From Elusimicrobiota bacterium (GTDB lineage Bacteria > Elusimicrobiota > Elusimicrobia > F11), in NCBI GenBank assembly GCA_046153645.1, contig JBJXGI010000042.1, forward strand, positions 17,280 through 81,279: a stretch of 64,000 bases of DNA. The letters run 5' to 3'. Made by a program: the position numbers and the translations under genes. Within the stretch, counting starts at the first letter, position 1. Every line of letters begins with the position of its first letter. This document shows, in pieces, positions 6,551 through 62,073 of the stretch. The notes beneath the pieces are model-generated. The model was not told the DNA's origin. It was given only the letters and a program-made list of their open reading frames with translations, and did not search any database.

Positions 6551-7369
6551 TCAAATGGGTATTTTTAATACCGGAGAAGGAAAAGAGACTAATGTCGAGG
6601 GAGCAAACTCTTCATTTCCAACACTCGCCCATTGTACGAGTTCTAATTTTCCATCAAAATGTTCGACCAATGCCGTACAACTTTCAACCCAATCACCATC
6701 ATTGCAATAAAGAATACCATCAATGGTTTTGATTTCAGCCTTATGAATGTGTCCACAAATAATTCCATCAACACCTTGTTGTTTGGCAGAGTCGGCAACA
6801 GTCTGCTCATAGGTAGACATAAAACTAACGGCATTTTTCACTTTTGATTTCAGATAAGCCGAAATAGACCAATAATCGAAACCTAAAAACCGGCGGATAA
6901 CGTTAAACCAATGGTTCAAAGTAAGTGCAATTTCATAAGCATGATCACCCAATTTAACAAGCCACCGGGCATGTTGCATGACCCCATCGAACTGATCCCC
7001 ATGCATGACCAAAAATTTTCTACCATCGGCCATTTTATGAACCATTTTTGAGGACATAGAAATCTCTCCAAATCGAATGTTTCCAAAGTGTCTTAAAAAT
7101 TCATCATGATTTCCCGGAACATAAAATACTTTTGTTCCCTTACGCGCTTTTCGAAGAATTTTTTGAATAACATCATTATGGCTTTGTGTCCAATACCAAG
7201 AACTTTTTAGTTGCCATCCGTCAATGATATCACCGACGAGATACAAATATCTTGATTCGTTATATTTGAAAAAATCCAGGAGAAAATCGGCCTTGGAATT
7301 GCGGGTTCCCAAATGAATATCAGAAATCCAAATGGTTCTATATTGTTTGACAGTTATTTCTTCAGCCAT
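6551..7369 (-). CDS. LpxH-family calcineurin-like metallophosphoesterase (UDP-2,3-diacylglucosamine diphosphatase-like)
   Basis: Metal-binding motifs are present in the expected order: ISDIHLG (DxH), LVGDIIDGW (GD), VPGNHDEF (GNHD/E). Confidence 0.65.
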   Translation of the reverse strand: MAEEITVKQYRTIWISDIHLGTRNSKADFLLDFFKYNESRYLYLVGDIIDGWQLKSSWYWTQSHNDVIQKILRKARKGTKVFYVPGNHDEFLRHFGNIRFGEISMSSKMVHKMADGRKFLVMHGDQFDGVMQHARWLVKLGDHAYEIALTLNHWFNVIRRFLGFDYWSISAYLKSKVKNAVSFMSTYEQTVADSAKQQGVDGIICGHIHKAEIKTIDGILYCNDGDWVESCTALVEHFDGKLELVQWASVGNEEFAPSTLVSFPSPVLKIPI

Positions 7370-54148: not shown

Positions 54149-55798
54149 TTATTGATAAACCCATATTTTTTCTGAAGAGCTTTTCAACTTAAACACCAAG
54201 AGGTCCTCTTTTTCAAATATTTTTTCATAACTGGGACTTTGTTCTAATTCACCAATAGACTGGGTTAATTCTTTCAACGTATAAGGAATCGAGTTCCCTT
54301 TTCGATCACAAACAATATATTCCGGGTTGGCCAGATGTTTGATTTGTAACACCCCCATATGATCTCCCACAGGAAATATTTGGACAAAACGGCGAGAATC
54401 AAAATGAGGGAGTAAATTTTGTTGCCCCGCTAGTGAAGCATCGAATGGAATTATTTTTTTTATTTCTTCAAAAGCCAAAATTTTATTTTTATGTGTAAAA
54501 CGGGAAAATTTTGGAGAGCAGTAAACTCCAATAGCCGCAGTAATAAATATCGCCCCTAAACATATTTGACGTTTATTAATAAACCATGGTTTTTGGTTTA
54601 ATTTCATAAATCCAAAAACAGCGCCAACAAATAAAAAAGCTTGCGAAGGCAAGGCGTAAATATCAGCTAAATTGAGTTGAGTTTGAGCTTGTGAAAGAAT
54701 ATGTGGGGCCAAACTTAAAATAACGGGAATAAGAAATAAAGGAGAAAGAAGTGGCAACCCCAATACGGGGAAAATGTAACACAACGACGTAAAATATTTT
54801 TGAGGGTAATAACATAACGCCTGAAATAGGGCACCTGGATTAAAAAACATATTAATAATGATCTCTCGAGTTGTTTTACCAAAAATGGGGTAACGTTCTG
54901 CCATTAATGAAGTTTCTCCCGTTTGAATAAACGTGGGAATAAAAAATTTAAATTGATATATAAAAATTCCCAGCGCGCACAATATTAAACAAAAGCCGAC
55001 CTTTTTCCAGCCTTTTTGAAAAACGAGAAAAATACCAAAACCAGTTAAAACAATTGAAACATCTTCCTTGGCGAAAAGCGCAAATAGCGCAAATAAAAAA
55101 GTGGCCACCTTTTTTCCAGATATCCAAGCCAACAATGCCAAAAAAAGCATCGGGATTTGCCATGAATCAGGATGAAAGTCATTTTGAATATTGTGCGCAA
55201 TGTAAGGTGAAGACGCATAAAGTAAAAACCCAATTAATGAATAGGAAAAAGAACCTGTTAGTTTTTTTATAATTAATCCCAATACCGGAATTCCACTGGC
55301 AATAAATAAAGCCTGAAAAACCAAAAGCACTTCTGCCCCAGGATAAAATTTATAGAAAAAAGAAATGGGCCATAAAATCCAATTGGTATGAATGGCCATA
55401 AAACATTGCTCTAAAAGAGAAGAGTAAAACCAATGCCCATAGGCTGTATTGAAACAAATATTGGAAAAAAACCCCAAATCCAGCGCGTGTGTTTGCAAAG
55501 AGGTGTGAGCGTAAAGTTTATAACTAACAACACCAGAAACATAACAACACCACAGAAGAAAAAACAAAATGACCTGCCTCTGTAAACTTAATTGGTCTAA
55601 ATATTGTCTCAATTGAGAAAAGAAAGTTATCCCGTTTTTAAAAAAAATAACCCATAAACCCACAAGGGCTAGAATAATAATAATGAATGTTTTAAGTGAA
55701 CGAATCGAAAGAGGACTACCGAAAAATTCCGTTTGAATAGAAAAGTGCCAAGGAAAAAGGGCGTTGAAAATACCCAGAAAAATAATAACGAAAATCAT
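54149..55798 (-). CDS. Large polytopic membrane protein (possibly DUF2079 / GT-C-like)
   Basis: The track ORF runs to 55933, but its first 45 codons overlap the tRNA-Ser gene (GFESPPLR is the tRNA translated). The first ATG after the tRNA (55796-55798) gives a 549-aa protein with at least 12 TM helices. Confidence 0.5.
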
Positions 55799-55874
55799 CA
55801 AATAAAAATATTTTTTCAATTGAGAACGCTTCCAGTTTAAATATTGAATTGGGTATAGACCAAGAAATTTGGAA

Positions 55875-55965
55875 CGGAGGGGGGGGGATTCGAACCCCCG
55901 ATATAGCTTTTCAACCATATAGCGGTTTAGCAAACCGCCGCACTAGGCCACTATGCGACCCCTCC
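55875..55965 (-). tRNA. tRNA-Ser (anticodon GCU), class II with long variable arm
   Basis: Minus-strand sequence GGAGGGG-TC-GCAT…GTGC-G-GCGGT-TTGCTAA-ACCGC-(variable arm ATATGG…CTATAT)-C-GGGGG-TTCGAAT-CCCCC-CCCCTCC-G. It has a 7-bp acceptor, a 5-bp anticodon stem, anticodon GCT, and a T-loop TTCGAAT. CCA is not encoded. Confidence 0.8.
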
Positions 55966-56019
55966 AAAAGAAATCATTATAAACTATTTTCTTAAGCTAT
56001 GATAAAAAGAGATTATTCT

Positions 56020-56313
56020 TCAGTCTCTTAATCCTTCTTGCATATAATCAACCACGAGATTAATGATTTGTTTAACGGTCTGACTACAAGATTTGAAAGA
56101 TATCCGTTCAAGAACTTCAAAACCATAATTTCGAAAAATATCACTGATAAGCGCGTGAATAAAAGACTGGGTTGCAGTGTCTACCTTATCGAAATCAAGG
56201 ACAACATCTTCATTTTTGTTAAGAGCAGGAACAATATCATTTAAGCGAATATTTCTTGCCACATCTTTGTTTTCGGCGAAGGCACCCGCCTTATCAAAAA
56301 TGGAAATGTTCAT
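56020..56313 (-). CDS. Small STAS-like (DUF4325-type) protein
   Basis: A 97-aa product. Its size and pattern (…VVLDFDKVDTATQSFIHALISDIF…) resemble the STAS-like DUF4325 family, by recall. It overlaps the upstream ATPase gene by 4 nt. Confidence 0.5.
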   Translation of the reverse strand: MNISIFDKAGAFAENKDVARNIRLNDIVPALNKNEDVVLDFDKVDTATQSFIHALISDIFRNYGFEVLERISFKSCSQTVKQIINLVVDYMQEGLRD

Positions 56314-57269
56314 ATAAATTTGGGTTTATGAAAACGTGCTTCTTTACGTTCACGTATCGCAGTGCTGTAGGTTTTTCGGATCGCTTCTAAAAGAAGTGAA
56401 AATTCTGCTGTCTGATCAAGCGTCATATCAATTCCAACAAGGGTGCCAAACCAATGAGGCATGTTTTCTCCTATTGAATGTCGATCTTTAAACGGATCGG
56501 CGTGCAACGAAGATCTCTTACTTGTTTTTTTAAGCAATTTATAAAAACCGCTCCCACTATAGACGACAAAATAATCTCTGTTCACATGGGCTATAGATTT
56601 AATAAAAAAAAGACCCGCTCCTGCATTTTGTTCGGTCCCGCCTTCATTTTTTGTTTTTCCTGTGATTCCCGGCATTAACGCCATACGAATCCCATCTATA
56701 TCCGTTTTGGCCAAATGGGACTGATTGATTGAAGCTTTGATTCCCATTCCAGTGTCCGCAATTCCAATTCGAATCACATTACTCTTTGGATAATATTGGG
56801 CACAAAGAAGAGCTCCATATAGAGATTCTGAATGTTCAAGCACATTTCTCACCAATTCACTGACTATATAACCGATTGTTTTGGCCTGCTCAGCTTCCAC
56901 ATGGAGAAGTGGAATCATTTCAGTAATAAACTTGCTTAATTCTTCGGAGGTTTTAATTTGAGTAAGTGGAATAAATCGTCCGGCTGGTTCATGTTCAGTG
57001 ATGCGAATATCCGTTGGAACATTTAAAATTTTAAACAGTCCCATCCGAACCAAGTAATGTTTTGAACGCGCTTCTAATTTTTCACAATGGAAATTTTCCG
57101 GTTTAATGGTCATGCCAAGCGCCGCAATCATAGAGAGCACAAAAGGGTGAACGGAAATCCATTTACTATTGGCCGTCATTTCTAATATTTCAGGTGTTGA
57201 TGGATCAAAGCTTCGCAAAAAAGGATCTATATTTCCTAAAAACGCACTATTGGGTAAGTGTATTCTCAT
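56310..57269 (-). CDS. GHKL/HATPase_c-type ATPase (RsbW/SpoIIAB anti-sigma-kinase-like) with uncharacterised N-terminal domain
   Basis: Bergerat-fold motifs appear in order: N-box ELVRNVLEHS, G1 IADTGMGI, G2 NAGAGLFF. The preferred start is the ATG at 57267-57269 (MRIHLP…). The track start is an upstream TTG at 57338, whose extra 23 codons are encoded by promoter/operator-like DNA. Confidence 0.6.
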   Translation of the reverse strand: MRIHLPNSAFLGNIDPFLRSFDPSTPEILEMTANSKWISVHPFVLSMIAALGMTIKPENFHCEKLEARSKHYLVRMGLFKILNVPTDIRITEHEPAGRFIPLTQIKTSEELSKFITEMIPLLHVEAEQAKTIGYIVSELVRNVLEHSESLYGALLCAQYYPKSNVIRIGIADTGMGIKASINQSHLAKTDIDGIRMALMPGITGKTKNEGGTEQNAGAGLFFIKSIAHVNRDYFVVYSGSGFYKLLKKTSKRSSLHADPFKDRHSIGENMPHWFGTLVGIDMTLDQTAEFSLLLEAIRKTYSTAIRERKEARFHKPKFI

Positions 57270-57275
57270 ATCAGA

Positions 57276-57326
57276 ATTATACCGGGAATCCCGGTATTTT
57301 GTCAATATTCCGGGATTCCCGGTATA
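57276..57326 (-). promoter_or_regulatory. Consensus sigma70-type promoter with two GC-rich palindromic operator sites (putative leaderless transcript of the GHKL-STAS dyad)
   Basis: Minus strand: TTGACA (57305-57300), an 18-nt spacer, TATAAT (57281-57276), then 6 nt, then ATG. Site A, TACCGGGA(T)TCCCGGTA, fills the spacer and overlaps the -10. Site B, the reverse-orientation copy ATACCGGGAATCCCGGAATA, abuts the -35 upstream. The half-site is CCGGGA. Confidence 0.5.
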
Positions 57327-57358
57327 TTGACCCTCCAAACTTCACTGAGTGTTGTGAG

Positions 57359-58282
57359 TTATTGAGGACTTAAATATTGAGAAGGAATAACTTCTCTGGA
57401 ATCCATTGAAATAGGCCGCCATAACAACTGAACTCTAGAGGGGCCACCATAATTCACGAAATCTATTCGAATGGGAAATTTTCCTTGTTTAAAATCGTTT
57501 AAACTAACCACAATGGGTTCACGCCAATTAAAATTATTATCAACAATCAGTTTATCATCAATCCAAACTTTAATTCCATCGTCTGCCACGCCAATAATCT
57601 CATATTTTCCTGAAGACGGAAACGTAATCCACCCCTTCCACCGAGCAGAAAAAATACTTAAGTCGCCGAAGTTTTCAATAGGATAGGCATTTCCCCAATT
57701 GAAATCAACAGCTAAATCTTTCCGGGAATAAATTAAATCTTTGAACTCACTCCCTCTAAAGTACTCGCATATAAGGCCGCGTTTTTCATTTAATTTATTT
57801 TGCCTTATCTGCCATATTCCAATTCCTATAAATAATACGAAAGCAAACAAAGAAATAAATTTCCAATAAGGATAAACAAAACGATAAAAACCATTTTTAA
57901 TAAAAGATAAAAACCGGTAATAAATTGAAAGCTGTGGGTAAACGCTATAAATACTTTTCTCAATGAGATCTTCCGCTTTTTTAAGCATCTTTAAAAAAAT
58001 ATCGACCTGTTCAACATGAGCATTTTCATCATGCCCATTATTGGCCAGAGAATAACTTTCAATTTGATTTAAAATGGTCATTTCTGATAAAAACTTTTCA
58101 CTCTGAGGAAGGTGTTTAGCAAGATCTTTCATTGAATTTAAAATAAATGGCTTGGAAAATTCAATCAAATCAAAATTCTCTGAATCAATCAGATTTTTTA
58201 TCCCTTCGATATTGGATTTAAGTTTGTTAAATTTCTTAGAAATTTCTTCAATACTCATTTTTCTCTCCATTCGATAACCCAA
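57359..58282 (-). CDS. Membrane-anchored PA14-domain protein (cytoplasmic N-domain, 1 TM, periplasmic PA14), paralog 1
   Basis: The TM helix is FISLFAFVLFIGIGIW. The C-terminus is PA14-like (…FSARWKGWITFPSSGKYEIIGVADDGIKVWIDDKLIVDNNFNW…RVQLLW). The track start is TTG; ATG alternatives lie 4 or 8 codons downstream. Confidence 0.6.
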   Translation of the reverse strand: MGYRMERKMSIEEISKKFNKLKSNIEGIKNLIDSENFDLIEFSKPFILNSMKDLAKHLPQSEKFLSEMTILNQIESYSLANNGHDENAHVEQVDIFLKMLKKAEDLIEKSIYSVYPQLSIYYRFLSFIKNGFYRFVYPYWKFISLFAFVLFIGIGIWQIRQNKLNEKRGLICEYFRGSEFKDLIYSRKDLAVDFNWGNAYPIENFGDLSIFSARWKGWITFPSSGKYEIIGVADDGIKVWIDDKLIVDNNFNWREPIVVSLNDFKQGKFPIRIDFVNYGGPSRVQLLWRPISMDSREVIPSQYLSPQ

Positions 58283-61161: not shown

Positions 61162-62073
61162 ATGGAAGAAACTAATAATCTCATAAAAAAAGCGACTCTG
61201 GTTCTAGATTCCGCTTTTGCAATGCTACATCAAGATCCATCGACAGCAAAACTACTTATTTTTAGAACTATCATAATATTAAAAAGAACCTACGAGGGGA
61301 TAAGAATTGGAACAAATGATGATCAGCAATATGAAATCCCAAACACATCAATTATCTATGAAGACTATGTACAAGAATTATTTAAAACTTCCCTTATAGA
61401 TTTAGAAAAAATTTCCATTTCAGACAGCACACTGAAGATAACGTTAATTCAAACTAAAGATGAGCTAGAAAAACTCAAAAAAGAATTGGGTTTAAATTCT
61501 TTAAAAAAATATAAAAATAAAATACTAAAAATTTTTCTTAGTAATTTTTTTCTGAAAAAAATATTACCAACATTAGTTTTTTCTTTCACTTCTTTATTTG
61601 TTATAAAAATAGTTTATCATCACGTCATTGATAAAAAACATGGACTAACTACAGAATATTTCTCGGACCATAATTTATTATCACGAACGTTCGTAAACCA
61701 CAATCGGGAAATCGATTTTGACTGGGGATATTCTGGTCCTCTGCCTAATGGTCAAGCAGATTTTTTCTCAATTAGATGGGAAAGTTATTTATTCGTCCCA
61801 GAAGACAATGAATATAGTTTTATAACACTGTCCGATGACGGGGTTCGGCTTTGGATTAATGATTTTTTACTTATTGATGACTGGATAAATCATCCTCCTA
61901 TTTATAATGAAAATAAAATACGCCTCCCAAAGGGATTCCATAAATTTAAGCTAGAATATTATGAGTATGATCTTACAGCAGGTGTAAGAGTCTTTTGGAG
62001 ACCGCTAACGAGTAAAAAGAAAGAAATTATCAAACAAAAATTCTTCTATCTCGAAAATCCTATCAAAGGTTAA
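61162..62073 (+). CDS. Membrane-anchored PA14-domain protein, paralog 2
   Basis: Same architecture as 57359-58282. The post-TM region (…EYFSDHNLLSRTFVNHNREIDFDWGY…FFSIRWESYLFVPEDNEYSFITLSDDGVRLWINDFLLIDDW…VRVFWRP) is clearly homologous to paralog 1. Confidence 0.6.
   Translation: MEETNNLIKKATLVLDSAFAMLHQDPSTAKLLIFRTIIILKRTYEGIRIGTNDDQQYEIPNTSIIYEDYVQELFKTSLIDLEKISISDSTLKITLIQTKDELEKLKKELGLNSLKKYKNKILKIFLSNFFLKKILPTLVFSFTSLFVIKIVYHHVIDKKHGLTTEYFSDHNLLSRTFVNHNREIDFDWGYSGPLPNGQADFFSIRWESYLFVPEDNEYSFITLSDDGVRLWINDFLLIDDWINHPPIYNENKIRLPKGFHKFKLEYYEYDLTAGVRVFWRPLTSKKKEIIKQKFFYLENPIKG

Follow-up and report, generated by a model that had tools for sequence, protein, structure and literature searches.

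On balance, we favor reading the segment at positions 57270-57324 on the minus strand of the 64-kb window (the whole stretch of Elusimicrobiota DNA analysed here) as the built-in, self-contained and probably autorepressed leaderless promoter-operator of a mobile cassette. The cassette itself, about 1.35 kb from the distal operator dyad to the stop of its second gene, is best read as a horizontally mobile two-gene unit. Its first gene (56310..57269, minus strand) encodes a 319-aa ATPase with an RsbW/SpoIIAB-like GHKL core at residues ~110-285, preceded by an extra N-terminal domain and followed by a basic C-terminal helix. The Pfam match to HATPase_c_2 is weak and a structure search returned the GHKL fold; the protein can be placed with the GHKL (HATPase_c_2) kinase fold. 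The second gene (56020..56313, minus strand) encodes a 97-aa STAS-like protein, which matches Pfam DUF4325 (E 2e-13) and is acidic (pI 4.9), and its start overlaps the ATPase stop in an ATGA that is kept in related loci. Neither Pfam nor the structure search found a known DNA-binding fold in either cassette protein, and PADLOC and NCBIfam gave no toxin-antitoxin family assignment. The neighbours of the cassette in the window are PA14, DUF2079 and glycosyltransferase-like genes according to Pfam. The cassette also adjoins a tRNA-Ser gene there.

The 89-nt gap between the stop of the PA14 gene (TAA, 57361-57359, minus strand) and the ATPase ATG (57267..57269, minus strand) holds a promoter that a consensus scan scored as a 12/12 sigma-70 match. 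Counted from the A of the ATG, the -35 hexamer TTGACA (57300..57305, minus strand) lies at -36 to -31 and the -10 hexamer TATAAT (57276..57281, minus strand) at -12 to -7, with a spacer of 18 nt between them. The 6-nt discriminator TCTGAT (57270..57275, minus strand) follows, unconserved and without a Shine-Dalgarno (SD) sequence. This is the succession of TTGACA, 18 nt, TATAAT, 6 nt and ATG that the sequence-only reading had described, and the coordinates, on the minus strand, agree with it. A lone 12/12 match says little, since one turns up in 15% of shuffled 64-kb windows; the case for more than chance comes from the dyads, the geometry and the cross-phylum conservation combined. We counted a sigma-70 promoter as scorable if it reached 9/12 or more and its -10 ended 4-9 nt ahead of the start, and 67 of 93 unique family loci have one. 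Of these 67 loci, 53 have the exact TTGACA and 32 the exact TATAAT, all 67 fit TAnnnT at the -10, and the information content of the discriminator in the family profile is zero. Both the hexamer match and the positional conservation are those of a predicted sigma-70-type promoter.

Two exact copies of a palindrome, each of 13 bp or of 17 bp counting the TA flanks, are set into this promoter 28 bp apart from centre to centre. The distal dyad CCGGGAATCCCGG (57310..57322, minus-strand reading) is an exact palindrome covering -53 to -41 (centre -47) and lies 4 nt upstream of the -35. The proximal dyad CCGGGATTCCCGG (57282..57294, minus strand) covers -25 to -13 (centre -19) and fills the promoter spacer, its TA flank being the first two bases of the -10. 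What had been described as a 14-mer palindrome is in fact a 13-mer, CCGGGA-W-TCCCGG (6+1+6). The claim of two copies stood, but the "opposite orientation" assigned to them hangs on the central A/T alone, a base that is unconstrained family-wide (the same in both copies in 49 loci, complementary in 31). The observed number of palindrome matches was reached in 0/100 shuffles. There are no further exact copies in the 64-kb window, where the four remaining matches carry two mismatches each and lie within long ORFs, and the 10-kb flanks of 22 other loci contain no extra dyads, the palindrome occurring there at the cassette only. The wider regulon of palindrome sites that had been envisaged is absent from the window and from these flanks, and within this DNA the dyads are private to the cassette.

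Several other identities of the site were rejected. A dispersed REP/MITE-like repeat does not fit two copies only in 64 kb with the two-mismatch matches inside ORFs. No intrinsic terminator was called at the site and no T-run follows the stem; Rfam gave nothing above threshold and, below it, generic hairpin (miRNA) models only. An inverton was dismissed as well, with the -35 facing the ATPase in essentially all loci and no recombinase conserved nearby.

A scan of metagenomes with the paired dyads alone as query returned at least 120 loci, and in about 90 of those listed the ATPase start lies directly beside the pair. Among the matches listed, the dyad end is 12 nt from the start codon in 52 of 90; the inter-dyad spacing is 15 nt in 66 of 80 loci, and the proximal dyad abuts the -10 in nearly all canonical loci. 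Because this set was selected for perfect dyads, its statistics on dyad conservation are biased, and only the 20 protein-selected loci form an unbiased set for that question. CCGGGA-type sites are present in 17 of these 20 and the full canonical arrangement in 12, from at least 8 phyla. The distal dyad upstream of the -35 is kept in 12 of the 20 protein-selected loci and in about 90 metagenome loci among the matches listed. Homologous loci of many phyla share the promoter and the two dyads in their DNA sequence, which supports the sequence-only reading. The pair combines dyad symmetry, a fixed register with the promoter and conservation beyond that of the neighbouring DNA, the marks of a putative repressor-operator.

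A single dyad is not diagnostic, because a single-palindrome scan of viral contigs gave 29 matches, close to a rough chance estimate for a collection of unmeasured size. These matches were terminator-like stems or collagen-like coding sequence, and the cassette was present in 0 of the 29. The cassette-free dyad pairs in metagenomes are mostly GC-rich collagen-like GxPG coding repeats or decayed cassettes. Two cassette-free pairs lie upstream of AAA_14 ATPase genes (L067, L164).

The mRNA of the ATPase is predicted to be leaderless, with transcription starting at the A of the ATG (57269), which is the 7th nucleotide past the -10. Exactly 6 nt separate the end of the -10 from the start codon in 47 of the 93 unique loci (47/67 scorable), and the discriminator is 7 nt long in 9/67. 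Start codons among the 67 scorable loci are ATG in 61 and GTG in 6. An SD-like 4-mer is absent upstream of the ATG in the window, and an SD-like motif occurs in one of the 67 scorable loci. This conserved geometry, together with a discriminator without information, agrees with the leaderless arrangement proposed from the window. Leaderless expression is nevertheless not a strict requirement: some loci have 1-3 extra nucleotides before the start, and in four (L002, L082, L136, L148) the start codon follows a genuine leader containing AAGGAG or GAGAGGG. In this genome, SD motifs were counted at 11/43 long ORFs against a background of 10%, an estimate too crude, given rough start calls, to count as evidence.

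Among the groups in which the cassette occurs, in unrelated contexts, are Elusimicrobiota, Omnitrophota, Spirochaetia, Saganbacteria, candidate-phyla-radiation (CPR) bacteria, Proteobacteria and Woesearchaeota. The ATPase family comprises more than 3,000 protein clusters, and each protein search returned about 3,100. Protein identity is 55-85% across phyla and domains, and therefore we consider the genes to be transferred as a mobile pair. The closest relative, at 85% aa identity, has another genomic context, and its homology starts ~8 nt upstream of the distal dyad. The 3' flanks of 79 loci are unrelated and share no 3'-end motif or second repeat. A comparison of neighbouring genes found no gene, regulator or recombinase conserved beside the cassette; no third gene conserved in or beside it was found, nor a sigma factor or output partner. 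In archaeal-type loci, a TATA box ~27 nt before the ATG stands in for the sigma-70 hexamers, and the dyads are kept; for L013, L019, L086, L091, L108 and L130 the box is placed at 30-31 nt before the ATG. A comparable operator is absent from the distant homologues L021 and L022 (25-28% identity) and from a Streptococcus prophage pair. The operator class tracks the cassette lineage and not host taxonomy.

In a sister subfamily, the two palindromes are replaced by a single inverted repeat with 15-bp arms flanking the -35, and the geometry of -10, 6-7 nt and ATG is kept. Its arms are complementary in 92% of cells and 11 of 15 positions have changed on both sides, which 0/500 shuffles equalled; one arm position shows five different pair types. 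Residue 12 of the ATPase is Arg with the arm GTAGAG or GTCGAG in seven unique loci (L016, L018, L174-L177, L184; an eighth Arg locus, L185, shares its upstream DNA with L184) and Gly or Ala with the arm GTATAG in five loci. The Arg and Gly/Ala states are interleaved on a tree that omits the ATPase N-terminus, an unbootstrapped neighbour-joining tree of 18 sequences. In the CCGGGA-type loci, the motif PNSAF[LI]GN is invariant in about 110, with single substitutions in 2, and holds at 52-55% identity. Neither the STAS-like protein nor the C-terminal tail of the ATPase tracks the operator class. The earlier suggestion that the N-terminal part of the ATPase is the regulator thus has correlative support from residue 12 with its operator base and from PNSAF[LI]GN. 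Residue 12 and the operator base could, however, be linked through co-inheritance of adjacent DNA, because the codon lies only ~35 nt from the operator and one recombination block would carry both. Likewise, covariation at all arm positions is also to be expected of a hairpin or cruciform or of template-switch "palindrome correction", and the symmetric covariation of the sister arms includes freely varying positions.

In the mechanism we propose, RNA polymerase would start at the A of the ATG and produce an mRNA without a leader or an SD sequence. The consensus promoter together with the leaderless start would make expression independent of host-specific translation signals, which would explain how the same cassette works in very different hosts. 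A dyad-symmetric oligomeric protein would occupy both sites and block RNA polymerase. The binding protein would most likely be a cassette product because there is no other cassette gene and no conserved neighbour. The best repressor candidate is the basic ATPase, which would act by way of its N-terminal segment, and the ATPase itself is the most likely regulator judged from the sequence comparisons. The acidic STAS-like partner may modulate the ATPase, by analogy with anti-sigma/anti-anti-sigma partner switching. More tentatively, and as a possibility that we would not call probable, an anti-sigma-type GHKL kinase/ATPase might serve as a sequence-specific DNA-binding autorepressor through an unrecognised N-terminal element, with residue 12 contacting one base per half-site, and might switch between operator DNA and the STAS-like partner. 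With a consensus promoter or a TATA box joined to a leaderless start as its host-independent signal, the cassette could then work in Bacteria, in CPR bacteria and in DPANN archaea.

Instead of being read by a protein, the dyads could act as DNA structure, a cruciform or hairpin making the promoter sensitive to supercoiling or insulating the cassette from outside transcription. We regard this as unlikely, although folding of the 84-nt region gives -22.4 kcal/mol (z = -6.8), its 24-nt arms are 92% complementary in the window, nearly all arm positions of the sister subfamily co-vary with complementarity kept, and the same 17-mer forms a terminator-like stem in unrelated viral contigs. In the two-palindrome class, however, the central bases do not co-vary (49 the same, 31 complementary), which means that selection does not maintain pairing between the copies, and a long hairpin joining both palindromes was rejected for this class. 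There is also no T-run and no terminator call, imperfect copies differ mostly by a change on one side, at position 3/3', and template-switch mutation also yields symmetric change with no need for selection on pairing. The fixed register with the -35/-10 or the TATA box and the link to residue 12 fit read-out by a protein better. That protein might be a host regulator encoded elsewhere, with the ATPase operon as one member of a larger regulon, a reading we hold to be improbable. It would suit two cassette proteins without a known DNA-binding fold and the few cassette-free dyad pairs, such as those before the AAA_14 genes in L067 and L164. Yet most such pairs are GxPG coding repeats or remnants of decayed cassettes, no second site occurs in the 64 kb or in the 10-kb flanks of 22 loci, and no regulator gene is conserved beside the cassette. 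Moreover, the same operator is found from Elusimicrobiota to Woesearchaeota, which would not have a host factor in common, and its class goes with the lineage of the cassette, not the taxonomy of the host.

The position of the dyad pair at the 5' edge of the cassette would also be compatible with a site that serves primarily for recombination or mobility and overlaps the promoter only secondarily. Copies of the cassette that are 85% identical occupy unrelated contexts, homology begins within ~8 nt of the distal dyad, the 28-bp unit and the whole cassette have been duplicated in tandem (L119), two loci keep the dyads after losing both genes (L096, L120, compared with L161, L168), the inter-dyad segment appears inverted once (L090/L142, one sequence), and a tRNA-Ser gene adjoins the cassette in the window. 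Such a role is nevertheless very unlikely: there is no matching 3' repeat or motif in 79 loci and no recombinase in or beside the cassette, and it would leave unexplained why the dyads keep a strict register with the -35, the -10 and the ATG and why they are retained beside a TATA box. The least tenable alternative, effectively refuted, takes the upstream conservation as coding for an N-terminal peptide of a real TTG-initiated ORF. The mechanical ORF does carry a TTG-initiated extension (57270..57338, minus strand), and the window keeps this frame open, as do some homologues annotated at 330-366 aa with "conserved" ...TGNPG..YRDSRYN... residues. The sequence-only reading took this frame for a probable artefact, and we agree that it is operator-promoter DNA read through and not coding; the extended gene calls translate the conserved operator DNA. 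An in-frame stop occurs within 23 codons upstream in 72 of the 93 unique loci (within 7 codons in 41), the homologues are mostly 319-321 aa long, and NCBI annotates this MAG protein as the 319-aa form that begins at the ATG. Furthermore, the variation of the spacer between 17 and 18 nt changes the upstream frame, what is conserved is a dyad symmetry of the DNA, and the 6 nt preceding the ATG show no conservation.

The proposed autorepressed, leaderless promoter-operator of a mobile cassette has counterparts among known systems, none of which matches it throughout. The C-protein operons with C-box promoters (PvuII, AhdI, Esp1396I) are likewise mobile and self-regulating, carry a pair of neighbouring dyad-symmetric sites that directly precede or overlap the core promoter, and commonly have a leaderless first-gene mRNA as predicted here. 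A sharp peak in the distance from the C-box to the start codon has been taken as a signature of leaderless expression, and C-box promoters, which lack a recognisable -10, depend on an activator (PMC2632904). The cassette promoter, unlike these, is near-consensus, and repression would therefore be the expected mode. The distance from the site to the ATG is 12 nt in the cassette and 17-18 nt for the C-box, and C proteins are small Xre-type helix-turn-helix proteins, whereas the first cassette gene encodes a 319-aa GHKL ATPase without a helix-turn-helix. A C-protein/C-box unit was rejected, there being no Xre controller and no restriction endonuclease or methyltransferase genes.

The cI mRNA of phage lambda transcribed from PRM is leaderless, and cI regulates its own promoter from 17-bp dyad operators, with OR3 at about -19 inside the promoter and OR2 at about -42 abutting the -35. 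The cassette resembles PRM in the leaderless first-gene mRNA predicted for it, in the proposed control of the promoter by the first gene product, and in its 17-bp dyads within the promoter and abutting the -35. In contrast to the consensus-like cassette promoter, PRM is weak and needs activation from OR2; the distal cassette site is centred at -47 instead of -42, and there are two sites instead of three. The cassette also differs in having no divergent lytic promoter with a conserved target and no cI-like helix-turn-helix protein. Type II toxin-antitoxin operons such as hipBA and relBE share with the cassette the compact two-gene layout with overlapping stop and start codons, the pairing of a small acidic with a larger basic protein, palindromic operators over the -35 and -10, and scattering by horizontal transfer; HipA, a Ser/Thr kinase, can be counted as a further likeness. 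However, no RHH, HTH or AbrB domain was detected in the cassette, and gene order and sizes differ. The RsbW-RsbV and SpoIIAB-SpoIIAA modules likewise join a GHKL kinase fold to a downstream STAS-like gene, but the cassette ATPase has an extra N-terminal domain of 105 residues and a basic C-terminal helix, its partner belongs to DUF4325 whereas RsbV and SpoIIAA are canonical STAS proteins, and a sigma factor or other output gene is not part of the unit.

The palindrome sequence occurs in none of the literature searched, in which DUF4325 is scarcely mentioned (passing mentions only) and no paper combines STAS, "anti-phage" and "histidine kinase-like ATPase". A regulatory region of about 50 bp conserved at the nucleotide level from Elusimicrobiota to Woesearchaeota is unusual, and it is carried by an ATPase family of more than 3,000 protein clusters without a described function. 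For thousands of gene models wrongly extended upstream, the comparison settles the start codon, and the 60-bp promoter-operator element is directly testable in E. coli. The natural pairs of Arg or Gly with G or T are ready-made material for a specificity swap, and if the ATPase is the repressor, it would bear a new DNA-binding element on an anti-sigma-like kinase. The archaeal-type variants re-use the same operators with another transcription machinery. Taken together, the consensus promoter with its predicted leaderless start and the private operators make a plausible general recipe by which a mobile cassette may be both expressed and kept in check in any host.

The promoter of the ATPase gene lies on the minus strand, downstream of the stop codon TAA of the PA14-domain gene (57361-57359). 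It consists of a distal palindrome CCGGGAATCCCGG (57322-57310), AATA (57309-57306), the -35 hexamer TTGACA (57305-57300), a spacer that starts with AAATA (57299-57295) and continues into the proximal palindrome CCGGGATTCCCGG (57294-57282), the -10 hexamer TATAAT (57281-57276), TCTGAT (57275-57270) and the ATG start codon (57269-57267). The 89-nt gap between the PA14-domain gene and the ATG and the 18-nt spacer, as described in the sequence-only reading, agree with these coordinates; the palindrome, taken there for a 14-mer, is 13 bp long (6+1+6). The promoter scored 12 of 12 in a consensus scan, and as 15% of shuffled windows also had a perfect sigma-70 match, the match alone is weak evidence. 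The two exact palindrome copies are 28 bp apart from centre to centre and form, with their flanks, an inverted repeat with 24-nt arms. No other site in the window matches with fewer than two mismatches; none of 100 shuffles reached the number of matches observed, and the four matches with two mismatches all lie within long ORFs. On the opposite strand, there is a mirror promoter-like site, TTGTCA-18-TATATT (57299-57328, plus strand; 10 of 12), whose spacer is the distal dyad. With its A-tract upstream of this dyad, the family consensus gives a similar outward-facing TTGTCA...TATTTT match. No conserved target gene was found for the plus-strand site, which may be a mere by-product of symmetry.

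Clusters homologous to the ATPase number more than 3,000, and the top matches, mostly 319-321 aa long, are 70-85% identical across different phyla. Scanning one genome per species, we selected by protein 20 loci, the window counted, from Omnitrophota, Elusimicrobiota, Spirochaetia, Saganbacteria, Saccharibacteria, Berkelbacteria, Proteobacteria and Woesearchaeota. The complete order of distal dyad, TTGACA, proximal dyad, TATAAT-like -10, 5-7 nt and ATG was present in 12 of the 20, and CCGGGA-type sites in 17. A metagenome scan with paired dyads alone, leaving promoter, ATG and gene unspecified, gave at least 120 loci. Among the matches listed, an ATPase start adjoined the dyad pair in about 90 loci, and in 52 of these 90 the dyad end lay exactly 12 nt (the -10 and a further 6) from the start codon. 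Deduplication left 93 unique loci among the matches listed, 67 of which had a sigma-70-like promoter with the -10 ending 4-9 nt before the start. In these 67, the discriminator measured 6 nt in 47 and 7 nt in 9, the hexamers were exactly TTGACA in 53 and TATAAT in 32, translation started at ATG in 61 and GTG in 6, and one locus had a Shine-Dalgarno-like motif. The six bases from the -10 to the ATG had zero information content among the unique loci listed, and the inter-dyad gap was 15 nt in 66 of 80 loci of this deduplicated set. The conserved promoter-operator is very probably real: the initial observation of a promoter with paired operators was confirmed with minor corrections, and its interpretation is supported to the extent that sequence analysis allows.

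The longer reading frame that starts at a TTG upstream of the ATG had been regarded as a probable artefact, which the homologous loci bear out. Among the 93 unique loci listed, an in-frame stop lies at most 23 codons upstream of the ATG in 72 and within seven codons in 41. The spacer of 17 or 18 nt among loci alters the reading frame, and nothing but the chance in-frame reading of TAT-AAT and TTG-ACA keeps the TTG frame open in the window. In longer-annotated homologues, the "conserved" N-terminal ...TGNPG..LT.YRDSRYN... is a translation of dyads and hexamers, and the NCBI annotation in an Elusimicrobiota MAG (database protein P0001) is exactly the 319-aa ATG form. Judged from these loci, the TTG extension is non-coding. 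It is likely that the cassette mRNA is leaderless; a constant site-to-ATG distance served as the diagnostic of leaderless transcripts in C-box systems (PMC2632904).

Several variants depart from this arrangement. In six unique loci among those listed (L013, L019, L086, L091, L108 and L130), of which two belong to records with Woesearchaeota in the title, the dyads are retained without sigma-70 hexamers. In these loci TTTATA(A/T)A begins 30-31 nt ahead of the ATG, where an archaeal TATA box would be expected if the ATG is the transcription start. In the Woesearchaeota locus L012 (4697-5001), dyads, TATA box and ATG are followed by an immediate stop codon. Between this stop codon and the ATPase ORF, repeats of the CGACAAAC type extend over about 220 bp and look like an insertion separating promoter from gene. 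Four leadered loci (L002, L082, L136 and L148) have a true leader with AAGGAG or GAGAGGG, the second dyad being displaced in three of the four to just past the -10. In two CPR loci (L014 and L015), the half-sites are split, with single ACCGGGAAT and ATTCCCGGT flanking the -35. A large sister subfamily, in which LS[NY]xDYL[RG]NF replaces the N-terminal motif LPNSAFLGN, has a single inverted repeat around the -35 (TTTACA or TTGACA). Each arm is about 14-15 nt long, and the right arm abuts the -10, which is followed by 6-7 nt and the ATG. In 13 loci of this subfamily, 92% of the cells of the arms were complementary and 11 of 15 positions were altered on both sides, a covariation that neither 500 shuffles nor slid registers come near. 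Common to all variants are a dyad-symmetric element around or over the core promoter and a start codon at the expected transcription start.

The ATPase (56310-57269, minus strand; 319 aa from the ATG; pI 9.1) matches HATPase_c_2 below the Pfam threshold. An extra N-terminal domain spans about 105 residues, and the C-terminal helix is long and basic. The stop codon of the ATPase gene overlaps the start codon of the acidic STAS-like protein (56020-56313, minus strand; 97 aa; pI 4.9; DUF4325 STAS-like domain) as ATGA. In PADLOC, a single 1,750-position DrmA (DISARM) model is matched by both proteins within its N-terminal 400 positions. Distant HATPase and DUF4325 pairs occur on plasmids and directly 3' of a lysin gene in Streptococcus prophages (L173, 1288-2477). 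The DrmA match and these occurrences hint at an accessory or defence-type module in the case of the wider family.

In the window, the cassette lies between the PA14-domain gene and a tRNA-Ser(GCU) gene (55874-55966, minus strand), located 54 nt past the STAS-like stop codon and preceded by a promoter-like TTATCA-18-TATAAT (55976-56005). A mechanical 594-aa ORF with a TTG start (54149-55933) extends into this tRNA gene, so the true start of the DUF2079 membrane protein must lie further downstream. A cluster of glycosyltransferase-like and FAD-oxidoreductase genes is bracketed by 307-aa and 303-aa proteins (57359-58282, minus strand; 61162-62073, plus strand), both apparently with a helical region at the N-terminus, a hydrophobic segment and a PA14-like domain at the C-terminus, PA14 being Pfam-confirmed for the former and judged by eye for the latter.

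The closest relative of the cassette (85% amino-acid identity) is flanked by ThiF/rhodanese and ThrRS genes, and its DNA homology to the window sets in about 8 nt before the distal dyad. We found no shared sequence beyond the STAS-like stop codon in the 79 loci compared, no recurring flanking gene across loci and no further palindrome copies elsewhere in the 10-kb loci. The homology edge, the unrelated flanks and the private palindrome thus delimit a unit of about 1.35 kb, bounded by the distal dyad and the STAS-like stop codon, which carries no third gene.

Rearranged copies were also observed. A 28-bp unit of dyad plus TATATTGACAAA occurs three times in tandem upstream of the ATPase in L078, L088, L100 and L110, and the entire cassette is tandemly duplicated with identical promoter regions in L119 (2998-6725). 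In L096 (about 7119-7159) and L120 (about 2503-2543), the dyad pair and the -35 remain, but the -10 and both genes are gone; L161 and L168 have an intact cassette between the same flanks on either side. Additional remnants are L095 and L112, the latter with about 15 ATPase codons. In L090/L142, a single sequence variant, the inter-dyad segment reads AAATATCAATATTG in place of ATATTGACAAA, apparently through inversion of the -35-bearing segment between the mutually inverted palindromes. Perfect dyad pairs without the cassette precede AAA_14-type ATPase genes by 71 nt in L067 (5976-6016) and by 173 nt in L164 (175-215); they may be chance, a relic or a second target. The identical 17-mer TACCGGGAWTCCCGGTA forms the stem of terminator-like hairpins with A-/T-run flanks in unrelated viral contigs (L025, L031, L045 and L036) and also occurs within collagen-like GxPG coding repeats; these copies are unrelated to the cassette, and their number is near a rough chance estimate.

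Domain and structure searches found no helix-turn-helix, ribbon-helix-helix or other DNA-binding fold in either cassette protein. The motif PNSAF[LI]GN is invariant in about 110 listed loci with CCGGGA-type sites, except for single substitutions in two, is kept even where overall identity is 52-55%, and is replaced in the sister subfamily, where the arms differ; the STAS-like protein and the C-terminal tail of the ATPase are alike in both operator classes. In the sister subfamily, all seven unique loci with GTAGAG or GTCGAG arms have Arg at residue 12 (an eighth, L185, was left out as its upstream DNA duplicates that of L184), and the five loci with GTATAG arms have Gly or Ala there. On a tree computed without the first 20 residues, from a small sample and with no bootstrap support, the two states are interleaved, as in L175/L178 and L177/L183. 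The motif/arm pattern, the unchanged STAS-like protein and C-terminal tail, and the tracking of residue 12 point to the ATPase N-terminus as the reader of the dyads.

An Arg-guanine contact would naturally explain the pairing of residue 12 with the arms. The same link might reflect co-inheritance in one recombination block, the residue-12 codon being only about 35 nt from the operator, and symmetric arm changes could arise without selection by template-switch "palindrome correction". That the dyads act as cruciforms or hairpins instead of protein sites seems unlikely to us. We propose the ATPase as the repressor tentatively, with somewhat less than even confidence.

Among known systems, the C-box/C-protein promoters of restriction-modification operons are the nearest in logic: they combine two dyad sites with autoregulation and leaderless mRNAs, the last two of which are predicted for the cassette. 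The lambda PRM/OR region and autoregulated toxin-antitoxin operons follow a similar logic. However, the regulator that defines each of these three systems is missing, as the cassette has no helix-turn-helix, C-protein or antitoxin domain, and it therefore belongs to none of them. Its promoter is also predicted from the consensus match to be strong and not activator-dependent. The protein pair resembles RsbW/RsbV-type modules, although no sigma factor or other output gene accompanies it. The palindrome was not found in the literature searched, where DUF4325 has isolated single mentions only. The element is an undescribed promoter-operator, conserved across domains, of an uncharacterised mobile cassette, with a logic of a known kind.

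The mechanism that we propose goes beyond the anatomy, conservation, geometry and self-contained nature of the unit, which the sequences show. Transcription would begin at the A of the ATG, producing a leaderless mRNA, and RNA polymerase would be blocked by an oligomeric protein, putatively the cassette's own basic ATPase, that occupies the sites at -19 and -47. The acidic STAS-like partner may modulate the ATPase, by analogy with partner switching. The consensus promoter and leaderless start would make expression free of host Shine-Dalgarno usage, which would fit the spread of the cassette to CPR bacteria and DPANN archaea.
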